DNA of 45,714 nt from a virus (taxonomy: Duplodnaviria > Heunggongvirae > Uroviricota > Caudoviricetes), in IMG/VR virus record IMGVR_UViG_2718218126_000004. One strand, 5' to 3'. The notes beneath the pieces were generated by a model. That model had not been told where the DNA came from and ran no database searches. It saw only the letters and a list, made by a program, of their open reading frames with translations. A program made the translations under genes and the position numbers. Of the stretch, positions 1 to 14,553 are shown piece by piece (the stretch's first letter is position 1; every line of letters starts with the position of its first letter).

Positions 1-155
1 CTAGATGTAGAACTGTGTGGTGACGGTCTTCCAGCTATTCGGCTCCTGCTGTATTGAAGCATACCAGGCTATTTCAATATCGCTATGCTGCGGCAGCATT
101 TAACCCCTTGTAATTCATTGCCATAATTGATTTAATTCACAAATAAAACTATAAC

Positions 156-824
156 ATGGTGAAATTAATGAAAAAAAACACAGATGATGGGGCTAAAATT
201 TACACACCACTTACCCTAAAGCTTTATGACTGGTGGGTTTTGGGAGTATCAAATCGGCTTGCATGGGGATGTCCTACAAAGGAACACCTTCTTCCACACT
301 TTCTGGAACATTTAGGTAACAACCATCTGGATATTGGTGTTGGAACTGGGTTTTACCTTACTCACGTACCTGAGAGTAGTCTGATATCTTTAATGGATTT
401 GAACGAAGCTAGCCTGAACGCGGCATCTACAAGGGCTGGGGAATCAAAAATTAAACATAAAATTAACCATGATGTTTTTGAACCTTATCCCGCGGCGTTA
501 CATGGTCAATTTGATTCCATTTCCATGTTTTACCTTCTTCACTGCCTGCCTGGAAATATATCTACAAAAAGCTGTGTAATACGCAATGCGGCGCAGGCCT
601 TAACTGACGATGGAACTCTATACGGAGCCACAATTCTTGGCGATGGAGTTGTGCACAATAGCTTCGGTCAAAAACTGATGCGCATTTACAATCAGAAAGG
701 CATCTTTTCAAACACAAAAGATTCCGAAGAAGGCTTAACACATATACTCTCAGAGCATTTCGAGAATGTTAAAACCAAGGTTCAAGGTACTGTAGTAATG
801 TTTTCCGCTTCAGGGAAAAAATAG
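156..824 (+). CDS. Class I SAM-dependent methyltransferase (AT-rich cargo gene; start may be the ATG at 168)
   Basis: 222-aa ORF with a glycine-rich motif I (LDIGVGTGFY) typical of Rossmann-fold SAM methyltransferases; markedly AT-rich relative to the phage structural genes; hairpin plus T-run just downstream. Confidence 0.6.
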   Translation: MVKLMKKNTDDGAKIYTPLTLKLYDWWVLGVSNRLAWGCPTKEHLLPHFLEHLGNNHLDIGVGTGFYLTHVPESSLISLMDLNEASLNAASTRAGESKIKHKINHDVFEPYPAALHGQFDSISMFYLLHCLPGNISTKSCVIRNAAQALTDDGTLYGATILGDGVVHNSFGQKLMRIYNQKGIFSNTKDSEEGLTHILSEHFENVKTKVQGTVVMFSASGKK

Positions 825-831
825 CATCCAA

Positions 832-870
832 CCGCAGCACGTTCTTGCATAAGGCGTGTCTGCGGTTTTT
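832..870 (+). terminator. Putative rho-independent terminator downstream of the methyltransferase
   Basis: Inverted repeat ccgcagcacg...cgtgtctgcgg (832-865) followed by TTTTT (866-870). Confidence 0.35.
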
Positions 871-1371
871 CAACTATTCAGATACATCACTCCCATCACA
901 TTCATTCCTCCGCATCATAGGCATATAGGCTATATCACCTTGATATTTTTCTTCTTCAGATAAAAACTGTTATCTATGTATACTTTTAAACCCAATCCGT
1001 GTAGAGTCTCTGCATAAGATAGTTTGCAGTTGCCACTTCAGCTTGCGCCATAAACCGCCTGATTTTTGCTGCCACCTGTTAGCATTCCTGTATACCTGAA
1101 ACGACAATGTTTATCTACGAACTTTAAGAACCCCCAGGATAAAAATTGTCAACTATATCATATATAACACATTACTAATTCGAGGCTATATGAACAGCAT
1201 ACTGATAATCACTTCGCTCCTTATCATATTCAGCATTTTTAGTCATGCGCTAATAAAATTAGGGATTGGCATATCCAATAACCCAGACAAAACCGATGTA
1301 TAAGTCAACATATCCTGAATCAGACATACAATATCGCAATGAAAATCAATAATATTTTAAGGAATATCTTC

Positions 1372-1605
1372 ATGAAATCAAAAGACACCCTAAAGTGGTT
1401 CCCTGCGCAGCTTCCTGAAGTAAGAATTATCCTAGGGGATGCTGTAGTGGAAGTAGCAAAACAGGGAAGACCTATCAATACCAGAACATTGCTTGATTAC
1501 ATTGAAGGAAACATAAAGAAAAAATCATGGCTGGATAACAAAGAATTATTACAAACAGCGATATCAGTTCTTAAAGACAACCAAAATTTAAATGGTAAAA
1601 TGTAA
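1372..1605 (+). CDS. ynaE: YnaE/YdfK-family small prophage protein (cold-shock associated)
   Basis: 77-aa product from the internal ATG (MKSKDTLKWFPAQLPEVRIILGDAVVEVAKQGRPINTRTLLDYIEGNIKKKSWLDNKELLQ...) matches my recollection of E. coli K-12 YnaE/YdfK; preceded by a long AT-rich untranslated region. Confidence 0.6.
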   Translation: MKSKDTLKWFPAQLPEVRIILGDAVVEVAKQGRPINTRTLLDYIEGNIKKKSWLDNKELLQTAISVLKDNQNLNGKM

Positions 1606-1921
1606 TATAATAAACTTACTTTTTTATCATTTTTCCACTTTAACAACATTTTGCTCCACTTTTCCACGACCAAACAACTTGAAATCTGGTTAAAATAACA
1701 CGCAACACTATTCTTCTTCCTTGAGTCCGCCCGGAACTCGAAAAACAAACCGAGTTAAAGCCATTTTTCACAAAATCGATTTTGGGTCTCACCAAAATTA
1801 CGGGGTTGCATACGCATTCGTTTATTTTCGAACGTGTACATACAAATATGCACAAACATAATCATAATTATTTTCTGAGATGCATTATGATATGAACACC
1901 AATTTCGTATAGAGTCTCACT

Positions 1922-2512
1922 ATGTCTCGAATTTTTGCTTACTGTCGGATATCAACGCTGGATCAGACCACCGAAAATCAACGCCGGGAAATCGAAAGTG
2001 CAGGTTTTAAAATCAAACCTCAGCAAATAATCGAAGAACACATTAGCGGCTCAGCAGCAACCAGTGAGCGTCCTGGTTTTAACCGGTTGCTTGCTCGCCT
2101 GAAATGTGGTGATCAATTGATTGTGACAAAACTGGATCGCCTTGGTTGTAATGCAATGGATATCAGGAAAACAGTGGAACAACTGACCGAAACAGGTATC
2201 AGAGTGCATTGCTTAGCATTGGGGGGCATTGACCTGACCAGTCCAACAGGAAAAATGATGATGCAAGTAATTTCAGCAGTCGCTGAATTTGAACGAGACC
2301 TTTTACTTGAACGCACTCATTCCGGGATAGTAAGAGCCCGCGGCGCAGGGAAACGTTTTGGTCGACCACCTGTGTTAAATGAAGAACAGAAACAGGCGGT
2401 ATTCGAACGAATTAAGTCAGGTGTAAGTATAAGTGCCATTGCCCGGGAATTCAAAACCTCGCGGCAAACCATTTTAAGAGCCAAAGCAAAACTTCAGACA
2501 CCTGACATATAA
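1922..2512 (+). CDS. pin: Serine recombinase, Din-family DNA invertase (Pin)
   Basis: 196-aa ORF starting [20 protein letters not shown] with the resolvase/invertase catalytic N-terminus and C-terminal HTH; matches recalled PinR/PinQ/PinE of E. coli prophages; convergent with tfa. Confidence 0.9.
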
Positions 2513-2609
2513 AAAATAATCTCGGTGTGAGATGCTTTACGTCTTCCAAGCCCCCTTCCTTGCCGTAAATGGAAAGATACATCTAATTATAGAATTTATA
2601 TGTTTTACC

Positions 2610-3185
2610 CTACGGCAGTGCTGGCCATTCAATATCCTGTGCAGTTGACGTATCAACACGGTTCAGCAATACCCGATACTTTTTCCATGCTTCCAGCAAC
2701 GAGATTTCTTCCTCCGTTGCAATTTCCAGATCTGCAGCATCCTGAAGCGGCGCAATATGCTCACTGGCTACCTGCATCAGGTTGTTTTTTGTTTCTTCCG
2801 CCTCCCGGATCCGGAACAGTTTTTCTGCTTCCGTATCCTTCACCCAGGCTGTGCCGTTCCACTTCTGAAACTCCCCTTCCGGCGATAACCAGGTAACATT
2901 TTTCGGTAACGGACCGAGTTCAGAAATAAATAACGCGTCGCCGGAAGCCACGTCATAAACCGTTTTACCCCGATGATCTTCAACGAGATGCCACGATGCC
3001 TCATCACTGTTGAAAACAGCCACAAAGCCAGCAGGAATATCTGGTGGTGCAATATCGGTACTGTTTGCTGGCAGACCTGTATGAGGCGGAATATATGCGT
3101 CACCTTCACCAATAAATTCATTAGTTCCGGCCAGCAGATTATAAATTTTTATGGTCCGTGGTTGTTCACTCATTCTGAATGCCAT
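2610..3185 (-). CDS. tfa: Tail fibre assembly protein Tfa
   Basis: 191-aa ORF immediately downstream of stf with a 1-nt stop/start overlap (TAATG); N-terminus resembles lambda/Rac Tfa. Confidence 0.85.
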
Positions 3186-6100
3186 TATGCAAGCCTCACA
3201 ATATAGTTAAATGCGATGTTTTTGACGGTGTTTTCCGCGTTACCAGCAGCGTTAACGGTGATGGTGTGTCCATGTGAACCAATCGCAACGGAGTGCGTAT
3301 GAGCACCAATACCGACAGTATGCGCGTGTGCACCTGCAGATGCTGCTGTGCCGGACAGTGAATGGCTATGATTACCATCTGTACTGGTATTCGCTAACCA
3401 CCCCGTAGACATACCTACTGAGCCTTGTACACCCCAGGTATTTTGACCTGAGCTTGTATAACCATATTGATAAGTATCTTTAAAAACACTGGGGTTAAAT
3501 CGACGGCCATCTCTATGGCTGTGATTACCAGCTGCATTCGTGCTGCCACTTAAACTATGGGTATGCGCACCAGTGTTATTCGTGGATTTAGTGCCGTAAT
3601 CAAACGACGATGTGGTTTTCGTCCCCAAATCCGTACTGGATGCGCTGGCGCTGTGGGTATGCGATTTAATGCCATCCTGTTCCTGAGACAATACGGCACG
3701 ACCACTGGCGGGCTTGCCCTTAATCGTCCAGCCACGCAAATCAGGGATCACGCCTGACGGATAAGCGGCAGCAAGTTTCGGGTAGGCAGATTTGTCAAAA
3801 GTCTGCCCCTGCATCAGGGCATAACCAGACGGAACGGTATCTGATGGCCACGGGATTGGTGCGCCGACTGGGTAGCTTTCTGGTGGAAGATTTTTCGAGG
3901 TATAAACTTCTGCCCAGTCTTCCTCAAAACCATAGCCATCTCTTGAAGAACGGTAGAACAGACCACCATTTCTGTAATGCGCCTTCATCTGCAGGGTCCG
4001 GCAACTTCCGACTCCGGTATAGAAGTTAACCAGAATATAGCTGTCGCCAGAGCGGGTGACATTGTAAGCGCCTGATTCGGCATTCCAGGGAACGCCACCA
4101 TCCGCATCGGCATATGTATCCGTTGCCCTTCTGGCAAAAGCAGCCACATGCGCGGCGGTTAAAGTAATATCTTTGGAACCATCAAACTCAACACCAGAAA
4201 CCCGTCTTGGCGTTTGCAGCTTTGTTGCTGTTAATGCATTACCGTTCAGACTTGCGGACAGTTTGGTTCCAATAACCAGTTCGCCGGTTGCGTTATCAAT
4301 AGCAAACGGTCTTAATGTATTCCAGCCACCATAAACATCACCTTGATTGGTAAGCAGCAGGTAAGTTTTAGCGCCATCATTACGCCATAATGCCCCATAC
4401 TCCCCACCTATCATTCGAATCTGATTACCACCACGCGCTACAATTTCGTCTGTGGCAAAAAGTTTTTTGCACGACAAGTTATCGTTAACGATTAACGAAT
4501 GAGACTCATAAAAACCACGCCCACTCTTAAAATCAAGGATAACGTCCGCCGCGATACATTCAGTCGCTGGATTTGTTGCCCCAAACTTATAGGTCGTATC
4601 ATTAACAACGAGATCAGCACCAGGTGCGGATATTGACAGGCCATCTTCGATAAACGCAAAAACAGGGAAAGCAGCGCCATCAACATAGAACACAGAGCGC
4701 AAATCATCGCCCTTATTACTCATCATTATTGAGTGGATGGCTCGTTCATTGTTTTGATATTGCCAGAACATTCCATAAGCATAACGCCCCCTGTCAGTCC
4801 AGCCACCAGGCATAACAAATCCGTTAAACTCGCAGTTATTCATCGGATCGCCTGCGGTTCGCGTTGCCGTGGTGATAATGACCCTTGATGCCAGTTCGCT
4901 TACTGAGCCAGCAGAACGCATAACAACAACAGGGTAATATTTTCCAGATGTTGCACCTGCAGGAGCGTTAACCCGCACATAACGCATACCACGCTTATCA
5001 GCAAAGTCTGTTTTACTGACCGCGTTAATGTTGTTCAGGAAGCGTCCCTTATCGGGTATATCAGCGCCGTTCTGGTCTTTCTGCAGACGTTTCTCTGCAT
5101 TGTCATAGGCTGATTTTACTGCCTTTGGCGTTGCCGCCAGCGTTTCAGACGTACTGTTGGTCGCACTGCTGAGCTGTACTATCCCCTTTTTCGTCGTACT
5201 TGCATCCTCAAGCGCCACGGCGGATGCAATATCCTCTGCCCGTTTTGCCGCTGTCTCGGCGCGCGTTGCCGCGGATTCCGCCGTACTTTTGCTCTGTGCT
5301 GCCGCCGTCGCACTGCCAGCTGCCTCTGTCGCCTTCGTGGATGCCGTCGTGGCGCTGCCCTTCGCTGCGGACGCTTGTCTGGTCGCCTCATCTTTTGAAG
5401 CAGACGCCGATGATGCCGATGACGCCGCCGAACTGGCGGACGATGCGGCAGCCGTTTTTGAGGATTCTGCGCTGGTTTCCGACGCTTTCGCGTTCGTCTC
5501 GGATGTCTTCGCTGCGGAAGCAGACCTTGCTGCTGCGCTGGCCTGTTCAGTGGCTTCGCCAGCCTTCGTTGTGGCTGTTGAAGCAGACGATGCGGCGCTT
5601 TCTGCCGATTTTCCGGCGGCGGTGGCACTGGCTGAGGCCTGCCCGGCACTTGTTGACGCGGCACTGGCAGACGACGCAGCCGCTGTTTTTGAGCCTGCCG
5701 CAGCCGAGGCGCTCTGTCCCGCTGCCGTTTCAGAAGACCTGGCGTTTGTCTCAGACGTCTTTGCCGCCTTCGCGGAATTGCCTGCCGCCGTTGCCGAGGA
5801 AGCGGCACTACTGGCGCTTGATGATGCGTTCGTTTCTGATGATTTCGCTGCCTCTTTTGAGGCCGCCGCATCCCGGGCTGAGGTGGCTGCTTCTGACGCC
5901 TTCGTGGTCGCGGCGGATGCAGAAGTGGCTGCTGATTGTTGTGACGCTGCCGCATTCGTTTCTGACGTTTTCGCCGCAGCGGCACTGGTGACCGCCGCGC
6001 TTTTTGAGGACTCTGCAGCGGCAGCACTTTTTTCCGCTTCAGTGGCCTTTGTTGATGCCGTTCCTGCGCTGGAAGACGCTGACTGAGCCGACGAAGCGGC

Positions 6101-6589
6101 CTGTCCGGCTGACGTGCTGGCTGCGCGTGCTGAGCCTGCAGCATCAGTCGCATGGGTTGCCGCCTCACGGGCTGATGTGCCGGCATCGCTGGCTGACTTC
6201 TTCGCGGCTGCCGTGTTCTGTGCCACCGCGGACGCGTTACGCGCCACCTCTTCCACCATCAGTTCAAAACGGCGCAGTGCCTCAGGACGGGCATCATCCT
6301 CCGTCATGGCACCGAGAAAATCATTCAGCGTACCGGGTCGGGAATCTTCATACACGGTGATGGTCCCGGCATGTGACGGCGGGAATCCCTCCACCAACAG
6401 AATAACGCTGTACTGCCCGTACTCAACGTCCATGCTGTAACGCCCGGCTTCATCCGGATTTTCTGAGGCCAGCGTGTTCACCACCACCGTGGTGCTGTTA
6501 CGTTTTGCTTTCAGCTGGATTGTGCAGTTCTGTACCGGTTTTCCTGTGCCGTCTTTCAGTACACCTGAAATCTTTACTGCCATATTCAC
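3185..6589 (-). CDS. stf: Side tail fibre protein Stf (likely start at the ATG at 6583)
   Basis: About 1130-aa ORF; N-terminus [26 protein letters not shown] as in lambda Stf/StfR; long Ala/Ser/Thr-rich low-complexity shaft; C-terminal HxH repeats (GAHTHS, GNHSHS, GAHAHT, GSHGHT) typical of fibre-tip domains. Confidence 0.9.
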
Positions 6590-6590
6590 C

Positions 6591-6619
6591 CCACAAAAAA
6601 GCCCGCCTGAACCGGCGGG
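6591..6619 (-). terminator. Putative rho-independent terminator between lom and stf (minus strand)
   Basis: Hairpin gcccgcc-tgaacc-ggcgggc (6601-6619) followed on the minus strand by a T-run (plus-strand A-run 6595-6600). Confidence 0.4.
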
Positions 6620-6647
6620 CTGTCATAACACTGTGTTACCTGGCTAA

Positions 6648-7247
6648 TCAGAATTTATAACCGACACCCACGATGAAACCGTCAGTGCGCCAGTCACCAC
6701 TGCCGGAGCCTTCATAAGCAATATCAATGGCCACGGATTCGGTCGGGTTAAACTGCACGCCAGCCCCCCACGCCAGAGACGTGTTGCTGTGGCGACCGTC
6801 ATCACTTCCGGTCAGCACATCGTGCTTTTTCCCCTTGTTGTCAGTTACGCGAAGATAATCCCCGGAGAAAGTCGACACACGGCTGTAAGCTACACCCGCC
6901 ATCGCATACGCGCTGAACCATTCATTCACGCGCACAGACGGCCCCGCCATTACGCTGAACCAGCGGTTACGAACGGAATCTTCATGCCAGCGGGTATCGC
7001 TGTAACGGGTCAGCTGGCGATTCTTGTCTCCTGCATAGCTGAATGACGTCACCAGCCCCAGTGTGTCCGTAAACTCATAACGGTATTTCACGTTAATCCC
7101 GTTCAGATTATCGCTGCCGGGGACGTTCGTCGAGGCATGAAGATACCCCGCGCTCAGCGTGGACTGATGTTCAGATGCCCATGCAGGCGCACCGGATACG
7201 GCCAGACAAATGGCTGCGGACAAAATGGCGGCATAAAGTTTACGCAT
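6648..7247 (-). CDS. lom: Outer membrane protein Lom (Ail/Lom family), full-length copy
   Basis: 199-aa ORF with signal peptide and C-terminal AYEGSGSGDWRTDGFIVGVGYKF as in lambda Lom; sits between J and stf as in lambda. Confidence 0.9.
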   Translation of the reverse strand: MRKLYAAILSAAICLAVSGAPAWASEHQSTLSAGYLHASTNVPGSDNLNGINVKYRYEFTDTLGLVTSFSYAGDKNRQLTRYSDTRWHEDSVRNRWFSVMAGPSVRVNEWFSAYAMAGVAYSRVSTFSGDYLRVTDNKGKKHDVLTGSDDGRHSNTSLAWGAGVQFNPTESVAIDIAYEGSGSGDWRTDGFIVGVGYKF

Positions 7248-7270
7248 AATTACCTCTCGCTTTTCTGCAA

Positions 7271-7296
7271 TAAAAAAGGCACCATTTCTGGTGCCC
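7271..7296 (-). terminator. Putative rho-independent terminator downstream of the J copy, upstream of lom
   Basis: Hairpin aaggcacc-atttct-ggtgccctt with adjacent A-run on the plus strand (T-run on the minus strand). Confidence 0.4.
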
Positions 7297-7316
7297 TTAT
7301 ATGGGTTATAACAATT

Positions 7317-9895
7317 TCAACGAATACTGATGCCGGAAGCGGCTTTTTTGGTCACAATCACCGTACAGTCGGTGATATTGCCTGCCCCCTGATTGCCTTT
7401 CTGGAAAATCTTAAACTCCAGAGTGACGCTTCCCCTGCCACTCGGCATATCAATAACTGCACTGTAACTACCGGGAATGGCCCCTTTAGTTTCTCTGGAT
7501 GCGATTAATACGCCGTTTTTGCGAACTTCAAAACCATAACCCGTGTATCGCGTGCCTCCTGGGTTATTTCCGCTCCCCGGATCGTCATACGCTATACCGT
7601 TAAAAATAATGGGCGGAATAATAATCTGGCGGTCAAAGTTATGATCATCGCTGATGGTGACTGTAACCGTACCATTTGGTGTTTCCGTGTTACCCCACGT
7701 ACCGACTTTTTTCGGGAAGGCTTTTGATACAGCTTTAACGAAATCTCCTCTGACCTGGGTCGCCTCCAGCATGCCCTTAATCGTACAGTTCTGGTTAATC
7801 GTGACATTGTTGAGCGTTCCTGAGTTCGCATTCACACTGCCACTGATATCCGCATTTTTCGCCGTCAGTCTCCCGTCTGATGTCAGGGAAAATGCCGGAG
7901 GATTACCGCCGCTGGTAATGGTGGGGGCCGTCAGGCGTTTCAGGAACACTTCATTCATGAATATCTGATCGCCCTGACCAACAAACATCGGCTTTGTGTT
8001 GCCATTCGCAGGATTAATCATCGCAATCCTGTCTGCTGCCAGCAGCACCTGACTCTGCATGCCGTCAGGGGTGTTCTCAATACCGGCACCGATACCCGCA
8101 ATATAAAGGCGTCCGTCCTGCATCTGCTGCAGCTTCACTGCCCACATGCTGTTCAGGTTATTATTTGTATCAACCTGAACCTTCTGTATCTGCTGGATCG
8201 CTGCACTCTGGTCTTCCAGTTTCTTATTGACGGTCTGTGTTATTTCATTGCTGACATCCGTTATGGACGTCCTGATTTCAGTCAGGTCAGGCGCAAGCTG
8301 ACCGTTATCAATCTGCGTCCACAGCTCCTGAGCCAGATGGGTTTTCCCTATCTCGCCTTTGAAAAAATCCAGATAGCCTGATGCATCATCACTCGGCTGA
8401 CCGACAGCCTCCACGAATGCCGATTTGCCAACGGTGTTCACACTGCGAACGTAAAAATAATAATCATGGCCCGGTTTGATATTGATACTGGCGGCTATCC
8501 AGTACAGTGCCGTACCAAGATAACGCGCGCTGGTTTCAACCTGCCTGATATCCGCAATCCGTTTTTCCGAGAACCAGAACTCAAACTGTACCGTCGGGTC
8601 ATAAACCGCAAGATGCGGCGTGGCGGTTATCTGAAAATAGCCCGGCGTCAGCTCAATCCGCGACGGCGCTGCCGGTGCGGCAATCCGGAACGATACCGAC
8701 GCCGGATCGCCCTGCTGCCCCCACGCATTTACCGCCCGGACTGTCAGCCTGTAGTTCCCCAGCGCCAGTTGCCTGAAGCGGTATGTGGTTTCCGTCGTCC
8801 GGGCCGTGCTGACCAGCCGCTCACTGCCGTCATCCGCTGTTACGGTCAGACGGAGCAGGAAGCTCACGCCCTTCACCACCTTCGGCGTGTCCCAGCGGGC
8901 CAGCACCTGGTATTCCCCGCTGTCTGCGGTGACTTCTGCGGTCAGGTGCTGCACCGCTGGCGGCGTGACACCATTTACCGTGCCGCTCTGGTCGCCGTCA
9001 AAGTGCGCCCCGTTATCCACGATGGCCTCTTTTTCCGGTACATGCTGCACGGCGGTGATGGCATACGTGCCGTCGTCGTTCTCACGGATACTCACGCAGC
9101 GGAACAGGCGCTGGCGCAACGTCGGCAGCTTCAGCCCCCATACGCTGTATTCAGCAACGCCGTCAGGAACACGGCTCACTTTTACCTTCACGCCGTCGGT
9201 GACGGACTGGACCTCCACGCTGACCGGATTGCCACTTCCGTCAACCAGGCTTATCAGCGTGGTACCGGAGGATGGCAGCGTGATTTCACGGTCGAGCGTC
9301 AGCGTCCGGGTCTGGCTGTTCACCGCCAGCACGCGCCCGCCGGTGCTGATACCCGCATAGTCATCATCGCAGATTTCAATGACATCCCCCGGTACATGGC
9401 GAAGCCCTTCCGCACCCACGCTGAAGTCCACGGTCTGCGTTTCCAGCAGTTCCGTTTTAATCAGCCACAGCCCGGCGCGGTGCGCCTGCCCCCGACTGGT
9501 ACAGCCAAAGGCATCCATCTTCGTGACGTTACGACCGTAACGGGCAATGGCCTGCGTGTCCTCCACAAGCTCTGTCGCCGTCTCCCAGCCGTTATCCGGG
9601 TCAATCCAGTTCACCTCAACGGCATTATGGCGGTCCTTCAGGGCGCTGAAGCTGTAGCGGAACGGCGCGCCATCATCCGGCATCACCACATTACTGCGGT
9701 TATAGGTCCACACCTTATCTGATGGTCGGTCCTGCACGAACGTCAGCGTCTGCCCGTTCCATACCGGCATACAGCGCATCGCAGAGCAGAAATCACTGAG
9801 CACATCCCACGCCTTGCGCTGTGTGGTCAGGTACGCATTACAGGTGATGCGCGGCTCCGTGCCGCCAAAACCGTCCGGCACCGACTGATCGCAAT
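7317..9895 (-). pseudogene. 5'-truncated duplicate of tail tip gene J (lacks roughly the first 306 codons)
   Basis: ORF 7317-9881 translates to the C-terminal ~854 aa of J; its upstream end fuses abruptly at 9895/9896 to sequence from inside lom; no plausible start or RBS. Confidence 0.8.
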
Positions 9896-10254
9896 GCTAC
9901 ACCCGCCATCGCATACGCGCTGAACCATTCATTCACGCGCACAGACGGCCCCGCCATTACGCTGAACCAGCGGTTACGAACGGAATCTTCATGCCAGCGG
10001 GTATCGCTGTAACGGGTCAGCTGGCGATTCTTGTCTCCTGCATAGCTGAATGACGTCACCAGCCCCAGTGTGTCCGTAAACTCATAACGGTATTTCACGT
10101 TAATCCCGTTCAGATTATCGCTGCCGGGGACGTTCGTCGAGGCATGAAGATACCCCGCGCTCAGCGTGGACTGATGTTCAGATGCCCATGCAGGCGCACC
10201 GGATACGGCCAGACAAATGGCTGCGGACAAAATGGCGGCATAAAGTTTACGCAT
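9896..10254 (-). pseudogene. 3'-truncated duplicate of lom (first ~119 codons) fused out of frame to the J fragment
   Basis: ORF 9838-10254 matches full lom for ~120 aa (MRKLYAAILSAAICLAVSGAPAWASEHQ...YAMAGVA) then diverges at the junction. Confidence 0.8.
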
Positions 10255-10277
10255 AATTACCTCTCGCTTTTCTGCAA

Positions 10278-10303
10278 TAAAAAAGGCACCATTTCTGGTG
10301 CCC
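10278..10303 (-). terminator. Duplicate copy of the J-lom intergenic hairpin terminator
   Basis: Same sequence as 7271-7296 at +3007 bp. Confidence 0.4.
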
Positions 10304-10323
10304 TTATATGGGTTATAACAATT

Positions 10324-13300
10324 TCAACGAATACTGATGCCGGAAGCGGCTTTTTTGGTCACAATCACCGTACAGTCGGTGATATTGCCTGCCCCCTGAT
10401 TGCCTTTCTGGAAAATCTTAAACTCCAGAGTGACGCTTCCCCTGCCACTCGGCATATCAATAACTGCACTGTAACTACCGGGAATGGCCCCTTTAGTTTC
10501 TCTGGATGCGATTAATACGCCGTTTTTGCGAACTTCAAAACCATAACCCGTGTATCGCGTGCCTCCTGGGTTATTTCCGCTCCCCGGATCGTCATACGCT
10601 ATACCGTTAAAAATAATGGGCGGAATAATAATCTGGCGGTCAAAGTTATGATCATCGCTGATGGTGACTGTAACCGTACCATTTGGTGTTTCCGTGTTAC
10701 CCCACGTACCGACTTTTTTCGGGAAGGCTTTTGATACAGCTTTAACGAAATCTCCTCTGACCTGGGTCGCCTCCAGCATGCCCTTAATCGTACAGTTCTG
10801 GTTAATCGTGACATTGTTGAGCGTTCCTGAGTTCGCATTCACACTGCCACTGATATCCGCATTTTTCGCCGTCAGTCTCCCGTCTGATGTCAGGGAAAAT
10901 GCCGGAGGATTACCGCCGCTGGTAATGGTGGGGGCCGTCAGGCGTTTCAGGAACACTTCATTCATGAATATCTGATCGCCCTGACCAACAAACATCGGCT
11001 TTGTGTTGCCATTCGCAGGATTAATCATCGCAATCCTGTCTGCTGCCAGCAGCACCTGACTCTGCATGCCGTCAGGGGTGTTCTCAATACCGGCACCGAT
11101 ACCCGCAATATAAAGGCGTCCGTCCTGCATCTGCTGCAGCTTCACTGCCCACATGCTGTTCAGGTTATTATTTGTATCAACCTGAACCTTCTGTATCTGC
11201 TGGATCGCTGCACTCTGGTCTTCCAGTTTCTTATTGACGGTCTGTGTTATTTCATTGCTGACATCCGTTATGGACGTCCTGATTTCAGTCAGGTCAGGCG
11301 CAAGCTGACCGTTATCAATCTGCGTCCACAGCTCCTGAGCCAGATGGGTTTTCCCTATCTCGCCTTTGAAAAAATCCAGATAGCCTGATGCATCATCACT
11401 CGGCTGACCGACAGCCTCCACGAATGCCGATTTGCCAACGGTGTTCACACTGCGAACGTAAAAATAATAATCATGGCCCGGTTTGATATTGATACTGGCG
11501 GCTATCCAGTACAGTGCCGTACCAAGATAACGCGCGCTGGTTTCAACCTGCCTGATATCCGCAATCCGTTTTTCCGAGAACCAGAACTCAAACTGTACCG
11601 TCGGGTCATAAACCGCAAGATGCGGCGTGGCGGTTATCTGAAAATAGCCCGGCGTCAGCTCAATCCGCGACGGCGCTGCCGGTGCGGCAATCCGGAACGA
11701 TACCGACGCCGGATCGCCCTGCTGCCCCCACGCATTTACTGCCCGGACTGTCAGCCTGTAGTTCCCCAGAGCCAGTTGTGTGAAGCGGTAAGTGGTTTCC
11801 GTCGTCCGGGCCGTGCTGACCAGCCGCTCACTGCCGTCATCCGCTGCCACGGTCAGGCGAAGCATAAAGCTCACCCCCTTCACCACCTTCGGCGTGTCCC
11901 AGCGCGCCAGCACCTGATATTCCCCGCTGTCTGCGGTGACTTCGGCAGTCAGGTGCTGCACCGCTGGCGGCGTGACACCATTTACCGTGCCGCTCTGGTC
12001 GCCGTCAAAGTGCGCCCCGTTATCCACGATGGCCTCTTTTTCCGGTACATGCTGCACGGCAGTGATGGCATACGTGCCGTCATCGTTCTCACGGATACTC
12101 ACACAGCGAAACAGGCGCTGACGCAGTGTCGGCAGCTTCAGCCCCCACACGCTGTATTCGGCTATTCCGTCAGGAACCCGGCTCACTTTCACCTTCATGC
12201 CGTCGGTGACGGACTGGACCTCCACGCTGACCGGATTGCCACTTCCGTCAGCCAGGCTTATCAGCGTGGTGCCGGAGGATGGCAGCGTGATTTCACGGTC
12301 GAGCGTCAGCGTCCGGGTCTGGCTGTTCACCGCCAGCACGCGACCACCGATGCTGATACCAGCATAGTCATCATCGCAGATTTCAATAACATCGCCCGGT
12401 ACATGGCGAAGCCCTTCTGCGCCCACACTGAAATCCACGGTCTGCGTCTCCAGCAGCTCCGTTTTAATCAGCCACAGCCCGGCGCGGTGTGCCTGCCCCC
12501 GGCAGGTACAGCCAAAGGCATCCATCTTCGTAACATTACGACCGTAACGGGCAATGGCCTGCGTATCTTCAACAAGCTCTGTCGCCGTCTCCCAGCCGTT
12601 GTTCGGGTCAATCCAGTTCACCTCAACGGCATTATGGCGGTCCTTCAGGGCGCTGAAGCTGTAGCGGAACGGCGCGCCATCATCCGGCATCACCACATTA
12701 CTGCGGTTATAGGTCCACACCTTATCCGACGGTCGGTCCTGCACGAACGTCAGCGTCTGCCCGTTCCATACCGGCATACAGCGCATCGCCGAGCAGAAAT
12801 CACTGAGCACATCCCACGCCTTGCGCTGTGTGGTCAGGTACGCATTACAGGTGATGCGCGGCTCCGTGCCGCCAAAGCCGTCCGGCACTGACTGGTCGCA
12901 GTACTGGCCGATGACATACAGCGCCCATTTGTCCACATCCGCCGCACCAAGACGTTTCCCCATGCCGTAGCGCGGATGGGTCAGCATATCCCACAGACAC
13001 CAGGCCATGTTGTTGCTGTATGCTGGCTTAAACGTTCCGTCCCAGATACCGCTGTATTGCCGCGTCTGCGGGTTATAGTTCGACGGCACCTGCAGAATGC
13101 GCCCGCGCAGATGATAATTACGGCTCACCTGCTGGCTGCCGAACTGCTCCGAATCCACCTGCACGCCGACCAGTGCCGTGTTCGGGTAGCACTGTTTCAC
13201 ATCGATGATTTCGGTGTATGACGACCAGAGCGTTTTGTTCTGCAGCTGGTCTGTGGTGCTGTCCGGCGTCATCCTGCGCATCCGTATATTGAACGGGCGC

Positions 13301-13821
13301 GGCGGCAGGTTACCCACCACCACCGAGGCCAGATACTGCGAGGTGGTTTTGCCCTTAATGGTGATGTCTTTTTCCGTCACCCAGCCACCATTACGCTGGA
13401 TCTGAACCAGCAGGCGGACTTCCGACGGATTCCGGTCCCCCTTTGAGGTGGTTTCCACCAGTGCCTGCACGCCGAAGGTAAAGCGCAGACGGTCGATGTT
13501 TGCAGACGTAATGGTGCGGGTGATCGGCGTGTCATATTTCACTTCCGTACCCAGCACCGTCTCGGAGCCGGAGGATTCAAACCCCTCCGGCGGTGTCTGC
13601 TCCTGCTCACCGGCACGGAACACCACCGTGACACCGGAGATGTTGGTATTCCCCTCAGTGTCCAGCACCGGCGTACTGTTCAGCAGCACGCTTTTTAATC
13701 CATCCACCGGACCTTCAACCGGCCCTTCGCTGATGGCATCGATCACACTCAGCAACTGCGTGGACTTCAGGTTGTCCTTCGCTTCGCGCGGGGTATGCCC
13801 CTTACTGCTTCCTTTACCCAT
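10324..13821 (-). CDS. J: Tail tip / host specificity protein J (central tail fibre)
   Basis: 1165-aa ORF starting [34 protein letters not shown], matching recalled lambda gpJ over the N-terminal portion; C-terminal receptor-binding region differs from lambda. Confidence 0.95.
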
Positions 13822-13881
13822 TCCTCACGCTCCATAAATGACAAAACCGCCCGCAGGCGGTTTCACATAAAACATTTTGCA

Positions 13882-14553
13882 TCAGCGACCAATCACCACA
13901 ACCTGACCACCGTCCCCTTCGTCTGCCGTGCTGATCTCCTGAGAAACCACGCGAGACCCCACGCGCATTTCCCCGTACAGAACAGGCAGAACATTGCCCT
14001 GGGCAACCATGTTATCCAGTGAGGAGAAATAGGTGTTCTGCTTACCGTTATCCGTTGTCTGTGTACGGGGAGTTCTGGCTTTCGGTGCCAGCATCTGCGC
14101 CACACCACCGAGCACCATACTGGCACCGAGAGAAAACAGGATGCCGGTCATACCACCGGCCCCAATGGCTGCCCCCCATGCTGCAAGGGTGGCTCCGGCG
14201 GTAAAGAATGATCCGGCAATGGCGGCAGCCCCCAGGACAATCTGGAATACGCCACCTGACTTGGCCCCGGCGACTCTGGGAACAATATGAATCACAGCGC
14301 CATCAGGCAGAGTCTCATGTAACTGCGCCGTTAACCCGGACGTGCTGACGTCCCGCCCGGCAATCCGTACCTGATACCAGCCGTCGCTCAGTTTCTGACG
14401 AAACGCCGGGAGCTGTGTGGCCAGTGCCCGGATGGCTTCAGCCCCCGTTTTCACACGAAGGTCGATGCGGCGACCAAATCGTTGTAAATCCCCGTAAAGG
14501 CAGATGCGCGCCATGCCCGGTGACGCCAGAGGGAGTGTGTGCGTCGCTGCCAT
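13882..14553 (-). CDS. I: Tail tip assembly protein I
   Basis: 223 aa, same length as lambda gpI; overlaps K by 103 nt as in lambda; glycine-rich hydrophobic C-terminus. Confidence 0.9.
   Translation of the reverse strand: MAATHTLPLASPGMARICLYGDLQRFGRRIDLRVKTGAEAIRALATQLPAFRQKLSDGWYQVRIAGRDVSTSGLTAQLHETLPDGAVIHIVPRVAGAKSGGVFQIVLGAAAIAGSFFTAGATLAAWGAAIGAGGMTGILFSLGASMVLGGVAQMLAPKARTPRTQTTDNGKQNTYFSSLDNMVAQGNVLPVLYGEMRVGSRVVSQEISTADEGDGGQVVVIGR

Follow-up and report, generated by a model that had tools for sequence, protein, structure and literature searches.

The window analysed here is the whole 45,714-nucleotide virus record IMGVR_UViG_2718218126_000004, and the part of it under study, positions 156 to 2,512, carries a gene for a YbcY-type S-adenosylmethionine (SAM)-dependent methyltransferase, the small genes ynaM and ydfK, and pin, which encodes a small serine recombinase of the PinQ/PinR type. 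The window is a DLP12-family lambdoid prophage integrated at argU. We propose that the 156–2512 segment is a non-essential accessory arm of this prophage in the position of the lambda b region, and that Pin would descend from a res-resolvase cassette like those of Enterobacterales plasmids and a Tn3-family transposon. Along the prophage lineage, the res dyads ahead of pin have decayed, and cysteine has taken the place of the active-site residue equivalent to Arg71. To this account as a whole, the reading of Pin included, we assign a probability of about 0.7. The locus itself is of little import: it is already known and very common, E. coli K-12 has named, near-identical counterparts of all its genes, and PinR and PinQ have been recognised as orphans before. 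A recent proposal takes the pinQ/R gene as the founding case of "recombinase-activated phage defence", and the putative resolvase lineage, the lost catalytic arginine and the decayed cognate site make the directness of the published mechanism a testable question. Whether the role published for PinQ and PinR can be direct, given the missing arginine, is the sole point that we consider worth following up.

Window positions 1–3300 are 100% identical to E. coli NCCP 15734. There is a 100% match to NZ_CP097001, and the window ends at the stop codon of intD. The counterpart of the window in the matching genome is a complete lambdoid prophage. Its last gene is intD, and the tRNA-Arg gene argU follows immediately to the right of 45714. 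A 47-bp exact repeat of the argU 3′ end lies between envY and ompT (L001, 8871–8917), roughly 3.1 kb before position 1, and the accessory cluster sits between this repeat and the right copy at argU. Therefore, the methyltransferase gene, a tfaX remnant, appY and ompT are all inside the element bounded by the attachment sites, and the K-12 annotation of the cryptic prophage DLP12 agrees with this. The initial annotation had left it unclear whether positions 1–1900 are prophage or host flank, and had proposed a search for the attachment-site repeat, which, if found to the right of 1922, would have placed the methyltransferase outside the prophage. The repeat is found to the left of position 1 instead, and 1–1900 is prophage. 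The three genes that the initial annotation had placed in the segment are all there, as judged by open reading frames, Pfam matches and RefSeq.

The arm resembles the lambda b region and other prophage "morons" in its site between the tail-fibre genes and the attachment site, in being AT-rich (GC 0.32–0.41), in having its own promoter and terminator, and in its dispensability, part of it being missing from K-12 DLP12. To our knowledge, the gene content of the b region (ea47, ea31, ea59) is unrelated to that of the arm. In phage Tritos, the gene order J-stf-PinR-YnaE-int-xis puts the same recombinase, with a YnaE-like gene, at the lambda b position, past the tail-fibre genes and before int/xis. 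The arm of the window recurs in the phage record PhiR68_2, as ompT-appY-tfaX-ybcY-ynaE-pin-tfa-stf.

Pin and its resolvase-type relatives

Pin has the two domains of a small serine recombinase, PF00239 (2.5e-36) and PF02796 (2e-11), and is 99% identical to PinR of Rac and PinQ of Qin. Its identity to PinE of e14 is 39%, and that to Gin of Mu and Cin of P1 is 36%. Members of the Din family are mutually about 60–70% identical. Since Pin reaches only 36–39% with proteins that are far more alike among themselves, it is not a Din-family invertase, the label that the initial annotation gave it. The expectation drawn from that label, that Pin flips a segment carrying alternative stf/tfa ends, therefore does not apply. 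Pin does share with Gin, Cin, PinE and Hin the small serine recombinase fold, the C-terminal helix-turn-helix and a phage location near tail-fibre genes. The Din-family members have 26-bp crossover sites (core AAACC..GGTTT) and an invertible segment, and Pin has neither; the recognition helix differs (SRQTILR in Pin against VSTLYK/R), the orientation relative to the fibre genes is reversed, and the equivalent of Arg71 is a cysteine in Pin.

The close relatives of Pin outside prophages are of the resolvase type. Relatives at 60–85% identity are found on 1,868 PLSDB plasmids, and resolvase-type proteins of plasmids and the Tn3 family are 74–85% identical to Pin. Among phage records there are 11 relatives at ≥95% identity and almost none between that level and <60%. 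In the classic tnpA-res-tnpR layout, one homolog (76% identical) and a Tn3-family transposase gene point away from each other across a 159-bp intergenic region. Another, 74% identical, adjoins parA/parG on a pEA29-type plasmid of E. amylovora, and other plasmid relatives sit amid insertion sequences and cargo genes. The pin gene with its flanks is present in 2,674 of the 5,426 complete E. coli genomes, or about half. These comparisons suggest that Pin is a resolvase-derived protein.

The DNA upstream of pin points the same way. We compared the upstream regions of five plasmid or Tn3-family homologs with those of five prophage alleles. All five homologs have dyads of the half-site TGTCCGAAA/TGTACGAAA at −114/−97 from the ATG (9-8-9) and at −74/−51 (9-14-9), with a third, partial dyad at about −39/−20, an arrangement that looks res-like. 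The 125 bp upstream of the window pin are 64% identical to those of the IncX1 and IncI homologs, with an alignment score of 31 against a shuffled mean of about −25 and a maximum of −5, and the TATAAT of the homologs reads TATGAT in the window. The dyads are present in the window as relics (Table 1): the recognisable half-sites have 1–4 mismatches each, the left half of the distal dyad is unrecognisable, and an intact res is lacking. The dyads are likewise degraded, with TATGAT in place of TATAAT, in Rac, Qin and two further alleles, and thus in all five of the prophage alleles with the window included. No second res-like site or intact dyad was found elsewhere in the window. A scan for an intact dyad (TGTCCGAAA, spacer 0–20, TTTCGGACA) gave one match with ≤3 mismatches, at 40930, where the null gives 0–3; and a 22-bp direct repeat at 989–1010/1895–1918, considered as a second site, scores 24, within the range of shuffles (mean 19.5, maximum 29). 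Both were rejected. In sum, the res-resolvase cassettes of Tn3-family transposons and Enterobacterales plasmids, such as those of a Y. ruckeri plasmid element (L022) and the E. amylovora pEA29-type plasmid (L021), match prophage pin in protein (74–85% identity), in homologous upstream DNA with the same promoter region, and in a dyad spacing that the relics follow. The prophage alleles differ from them in the degraded dyads, in the cysteine in place of Arg71, and in having no transposase gene, partition genes or second site nearby.

Alignment with gamma-delta resolvase places Y7, R9, S11, D72 and R73 of Pin at the positions of Y6, R8, S10, D67 and R68. The exception is C76, which is aligned with R71 (KLDRLGC versus KLDRLGR). 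In addition, E38 stands at the position of D36, as it does throughout the subfamily, and the full catalytic set of Y6, R8, S10, D36, R68 and R71 is not present. Of the 120 closest cluster representatives, 115 have an arginine at position 76, among them those at 90–92% identity, as does every plasmid or Tn3-family homolog examined. The residue is a cysteine in five of five prophage alleles (the window, Rac, Qin, one from O145 and one that diverges at about 15% of residues); these keep the remaining catalytic residues. In Tn3 resolvase, the changes R71A and R71K abolish recombination and lower cleavage about 1000-fold (PMC2794168). We infer that catalysis by Pin would be lost or severely reduced, and the present role of the protein is likewise an inference. 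Among the papers within reach of a literature search, none ties PinQ or PinR to resolvases of the Tn3 type or remarks on the replacement of Arg by Cys.

Pin is nevertheless under purifying selection. The ratio of nonsynonymous to synonymous substitution rates (dN/dS) is 0.36 for two prophage alleles with about 15% residue divergence, compared with 0.13–0.19 both between plasmid alleles and between prophage and plasmid alleles. Pin is therefore still constrained, though less tightly.

Pin without sites and the inversion in e14

Pin is an orphan in cis, because no crossover sites are found beside pin or in stf or tfa, and no inverted repeats bracket these genes. Over the whole window, the pattern AAACCNNGGTTT with ≤2 mismatches gives 19 matches against 21 expected, the palindromic Din half-site score peaks at 13, as it does in shuffles, and the 16-mer of the e14 pix site gives no match with ≤3 mismatches. 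The hix, gix and cix sites score 13–17 on the same half-site scale. Searches over 1–14000 and 1–3400 found no inverted repeats bracketing tfa/stf. A lone AAACCAAGGTTC within the methyltransferase gene, at 772–783, was taken as chance; it is unpaired, and its outer half-sites are weak. Neither alternative tail-fibre 3′ ends nor opposed tfa genes are present in the window, which has one stf and one complete tfa. The initial annotation, which had called for a Din-site pattern search, had noted a single tfa; this holds for complete genes, but a second, truncated one, the tfaX remnant, lies at and just past the left window edge, in direct orientation. Its impression that crossover sites are missing next to pin and in stf, and that Pin is an orphan, is borne out in cis. 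An MG1655 derivative, whose Rac and Qin hold near-identical modules, has been searched genome-wide for inversions at the level of reads; the e14 locus alone inverts, and nothing does so beside pinR or pinQ (PMC4272514). A BLAST survey also found inversions in e14 only (PMC12529663).

Given that there is no partner site anywhere in the prophage, any present role of Pin would have to be in trans or by DNA binding, rather than in local recombination. A role in trans has been published. Kirigo et al. (NAR 2025, PMC12529663) report that the 1,797-bp P segment of e14 is inverted in trans by PinQ, or equally by PinR, and that the chimeric fibre StfE2 so created blocks adsorption of phage T2. The puzzle of an invertase without sites dissolves once a resolvase-derived protein with a decayed site is set beside this role in trans. 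It is tempting to propose that PinQ/PinR-type proteins are domesticated pseudo-recombinases, that is, crippled descendants of resolvases kept as DNA-binding or accessory proteins. Inversion of the e14 P segment, and with it resistance to T2, would then be catalysed by PinE and merely modulated or selected for by PinQ and PinR. We offer this tentatively, with the odds somewhat against it.

In the published model itself, PinQ and PinR are active invertases that act in trans on the inverted pix repeats of e14, and the window pin would be a phage-defence switch with its target elsewhere. The genetic evidence reported for it is as follows: T2 induces pinQ and pinR 14-fold, deletion of pinQ reduces survival and inversion, and deletion of stfP, stfE or e14 abolishes the effect (PMC12529663). 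The window protein is 99% identical to both PinQ and PinR, and action in trans agrees with the absence of sites in the window. Several observations stand against direct catalysis, the first being the cysteine at the position of Arg71. The DNA-binding domain is conserved with that of homologs that use TGTCCGAAA dyads, which are unrelated to pix (TTCTCCCAAACC). A pinE deletion mutant in which pinQ and pinR are still present is locked in one orientation, and the main text of the study has no in-vitro assay, catalytic mutant, or test of PinQ in a pinE deletion background (PMC12529663). Moreover, the e14 P segment with pinE is found at ≥80% coverage in 170 of 5,426 genomes (about 500 records at ≥95% identity), far fewer than the 2,674 with a pinQ/R-type gene; the reported target is therefore missing from most carriers. 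Direct catalysis of the e14 inversion by PinQ or PinR appears doubtful on these comparisons, and we regard the model in its published form as possible, though on the unlikely side.

Some evidence weighs against our own reading of Pin as a resolvase descendant with a crippled active site. In cells overproducing PinQ, inversion of the e14 P segment is reported at 88% rather than 30%, along with protection against T2, and the authors judged PinQ to be an active invertase (PMC12529663). Among solved structures, Gin (106 bits) is slightly nearer to Pin than is gamma-delta resolvase (84 bits). The resolvase function of the plasmid homologs is suggested by gene context and dyad architecture, and the effect of the Arg71-to-Cys change is extrapolated from Tn3 resolvase. 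Finally, homology in the distal half of the upstream region, which holds the most distal dyad, is just marginally above that of shuffles.

Alternatively, pin could be a resolvase gene in decay, carried along with the tail-fibre module as a relic without function. The decay of the res-like region and the loss of the catalytic arginine would fit, and the identity of about 99% across genomes, in coding and flanking DNA alike, could mean recent spread rather than selection. Such a relic would not be expected to remain an intact reading frame in 2,674 genomes and in viable phages, nor to show a dN/dS of 0.36 at about 15% residue divergence with Cys76 and the other catalytic residues kept in both alleles; and phenotypes of both deletion and overexpression have been published (PMC12529663). 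We consider this explanation improbable.

Pin could be taken for a tail-fibre switch acting in cis, like those of Mu, P1 and e14, with crossover sites that merely escape recognition, given its place beside stf/tfa and a historic name that goes back to a distant similarity to PinE, but this can hardly be right: Din-like and pix-like sites and bracketing inverted repeats are absent from the window, just one tfa is complete and stf lacks an alternative 3′ end, pin abuts tfa by its 3′ rather than its 5′ end, K-12 DLP12 joins tfaD to ybcY without the module, and inversion was confined to e14 in both the MG1655 reads (PMC4272514) and the BLAST survey (PMC12529663). Under the resolvase-descent reading pin would thus not be a tail-fibre switch, and the name "pin" on a prophage gene need not mean tail-fibre inversion.

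The YbcY methyltransferase

The methyltransferase carries the GxGxG SAM-binding motif and a Rossmann-like fold, as class I SAM-dependent enzymes do. Its Pfam matches are to generic class I families only, and NCBIfam matches to CpaM, RquA and PmtA are weak, far under the cut-off. The initial annotation had proposed a profile search as a means of telling a DNA from a small-molecule substrate; against the PDB, this search returned juvenile-hormone acid methyltransferase and UbiG. The predicted structure (mean predicted local distance difference test, pLDDT, 90.7) was used in two structure searches, both of which returned methyltransferases of small molecules, lipids and natural products. The top Foldseek match is a bacterial phosphatidylethanolamine N-methyltransferase (E = 3e-12, TM about 0.6), and DNA methyltransferases are absent among the top structural matches in both searches. 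The gene has no adjacent nuclease or partner gene, its neighbours being the tfaX remnant and ynaM, and it does not have the make-up of a restriction-modification or defence system. A PADLOC search gave just a 16.6-bit match to mad2 (E = 7e-4), not convincing as defence, and the PHROG family, 2132, is of unknown function. The suggestion in the initial annotation of a small-molecule enzyme without an adjacent nuclease thus fits the Pfam, profile and structure matches. Taken together, the sequence and the model indicate an autonomous moron, an accessory prophage gene, whose product is a class I enzyme of the small-molecule or lipid type and not a DNA methylase.

An orphan DNA methyltransferase with an anti-restriction or epigenetic role, for which one could cite the prophage location and the weak mad2 match, is very improbable. 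No DNA-methylase family of Pfam or NCBIfam matches the protein, the catalytic motifs (D/N/S)PP(Y/F/W) and PCQ/ENV are absent from its sequence, its 222 residues leave no space for a target-recognition domain, and its homologs are solitary genes in metabolic chromosomal settings.

The moron would have its own promoter and terminator. A sigma-70-like promoter candidate precedes the gene (Table 1) and is weak evidence, as such sites are no commoner in the region than in shuffles. The terminator noted in the initial annotation is well supported: the hairpin with its T-run has a folding energy of −20.7 kcal/mol (z = −4.57), which none of 200 shuffles equals.

The counterpart in K-12 is YbcY (b0562) of DLP12, at 98.6% DNA identity, with the neighbours tfaX, appY and ompT also shared. 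It is a pseudogene in K-12, whereas the window ortholog is intact, as is a ybcY-type gene in 3,796 of 5,426 complete E. coli genomes; the enzyme is thus widespread. More distant homologs, at 56–65% identity, are stand-alone chromosomal genes of Salmonella, Enterobacter and Erwinia in unrelated metabolic contexts and without conserved partners. A YbcY-like gene is also carried by about 600 Klebsiella plasmids. On an IncFIB/IncHI1B virulence-type plasmid of K. pneumoniae, one at 65% identity (L023, 4995–5648) adjoins the mucoid-phenotype genes rmpA, rmpD and rmpC.

On the E. amylovora pEA29-type plasmid (L021, 4001–5574), a gene for a PinQ-like recombinase (74%) directly precedes one for a YbcY-like methyltransferase (53%), and a choline transporter gene comes next. 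PinQ-like recombinases of Klebsiella, E. coli and Enterobacter plasmids recurrently adjoin betT, encoding a choline transporter of the BCCT family, and a DUF2254 gene. A conserved methyltransferase-recombinase pair was considered but is not established: the two are adjacent just in the pEA29-type plasmids and neither on Klebsiella plasmids nor among the chromosomal homologs. These arrangements, in which the linkage is not general, may point to an old cargo module and to an amine or lipid head group as the methyltransferase substrate.

Mosaic structure of the arm and neighbouring features

The arm is a mosaic of two known pieces, the autonomous YbcY moron and the ynaM-ydfK-pin module, the latter common to Rac, Qin and viable phages such as Tritos at about 99% identity. 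Window 1–865 is 98.6% identical in DNA to the ybcY-tfaX region of K-12 DLP12, 828–3370 is 99.0% identical to Rac (ynaM-ynaE-pinR-tfaR), and 816–3381 is 98.6% identical to Qin. K-12 DLP12 lacks window 866–2622, and its ybcY hairpin is joined almost directly to tfaD. The PinR and PinQ modules of K-12 Rac and Qin have the same gene order, orientation and prophage-end position as the window module. They differ in that they end at the attachment site, whereas the window module is followed by ybcY, in a DLP12-type prophage at argU. In DLP12, Rac and Qin of K-12 alike, homology stops at the terminator hairpin, and the DNA to the left of it is unrelated among the three; the hairpin acts like a junction sequence for mosaic exchange among lambdoid prophages. 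The tfaX remnant extends past the left window edge, in direct rather than inverted orientation relative to tfa, and the tfaX region is 82% identical to window 2624–2777.

Table 1. Features of the accessory arm and its surroundings (window coordinates).
Feature	Position	Strand	Basis and remarks
5′ part of truncated tail-fibre-assembly remnant (K-12 tfaX equivalent)	1–99	−	98.6% K-12 match of 1–865; RefSeq tfa pseudogene reaching window edge
Sigma-70-like promoter candidate for methyltransferase (TTAACC, 16-nt spacer, TG-CATAAT)	100–127	+	Consensus scan, 9/12 matches
YbcY-type class I SAM-dependent methyltransferase, 222 aa	156–824	+	Pfam Methyltransf_12/23/25/11
Hairpin and T-run, methyltransferase intrinsic terminator; left boundary of ynaM-ydfK-pin module	830–867	+	Folding, homology boundary
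ynaM/ynfT, 37-aa hydrophobic small protein	1190–1303	+	RefSeq; PHROG 35882
ydfK/ynaE, 77 aa	1372–1605	+	RefSeq "cold shock protein YdfK"; upstream ATG at 1339 would give 88 aa
Putative decayed res-like region, relics of three dyads of half-site TGTCCGAAA/TGTACGAAA	1808–1911	+	Alignment with five homolog upstream regions
Recognisable half-sites	1826–1834 (TTTCGAACG), 1849–1857, 1872–1880 (TTTCTGAGA), 1903–1911 (TTTCGTATA)		Half-site maps
pin, PinQ/PinR-type small serine recombinase, 196 aa	1922–2512	+	Resolvase and HTH_7 domains; convergent with tfa
tfa, tail-fibre assembly protein	2610–3185	−	Pfam Caudo_TAP 6.8e-43; annotation; convergent with pin; outside any invertible unit
stf, side tail fibre	3185–6589 (RefSeq start 6583)	−	Annotation; no crossover site inside

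The YnaE/YdfK-like gene that the initial annotation described, with a long AT-rich leader, is present, but the supposed leader holds the ynaM/ynfT gene. Its translation is identical to that of K-12 YnaM, the synthesis of which has been demonstrated by epitope tagging (PMC6001520). YdfK is 99% identical to K-12 family proteins named cold shock protein YdfK, and these proteins have a precomputed match to PF27475 (Pfam YnaE). It belongs to PHROG 2718 and to a narrow Enterobacterales family, of 94 clusters, with no informative homology; "cold shock" is an annotation name. A cluster of Fur sites has been predicted at the start of the K-12 copies of ydfK/ynaE (PMC2189734). PADLOC gave no match for YnaM, YdfK or Pin. 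An obligate ydfK-pin pair was rejected, as YnaE homologs at 62% identity occur without a neighbouring recombinase. The homologs at about that identity, on Enterobacter and E. coli contigs (L030–L037), adjoin a gene for a 2,860-residue GH94-family protein and small genes of the YnfU and GnsAB types.

To the right of the arm, the window has a tandem partial duplication of about 3.0 kb, 6886–9887 and 9893–12894, each copy combining a 3′ portion of lom with the last 854 codons of J. The copies are identical over 6889–8732 and have 60 mismatches over 8733–9887. The result is a full J (10324–13821), a truncated lom′ (9838–10254), a 5′-truncated J′ (7317–9881) and a full lom (6648–7247), all on the minus strand. 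The duplication is missing from the otherwise matching NZ_CP097001. Either a genuine unequal crossover between related prophages or an artefact of assembly could account for it.

Among Rfam models, a CssrB match at 833–970 (28.5 bits against a gathering score of 76) and weak isrG matches in stf, within 5100–6450, fell below threshold and were disregarded. A full-length match to IS009 lies inside the tfa coding sequence, at 2644–2842 on the minus strand, with 220.9 bits against a gathering score of 117. The N-terminal half of stf, 5100–6450 on the same strand, has a GC content of about 0.62, is rich in Ala, Ser and Thr codons, and contains periodic repeats of 21 to 26 nt.

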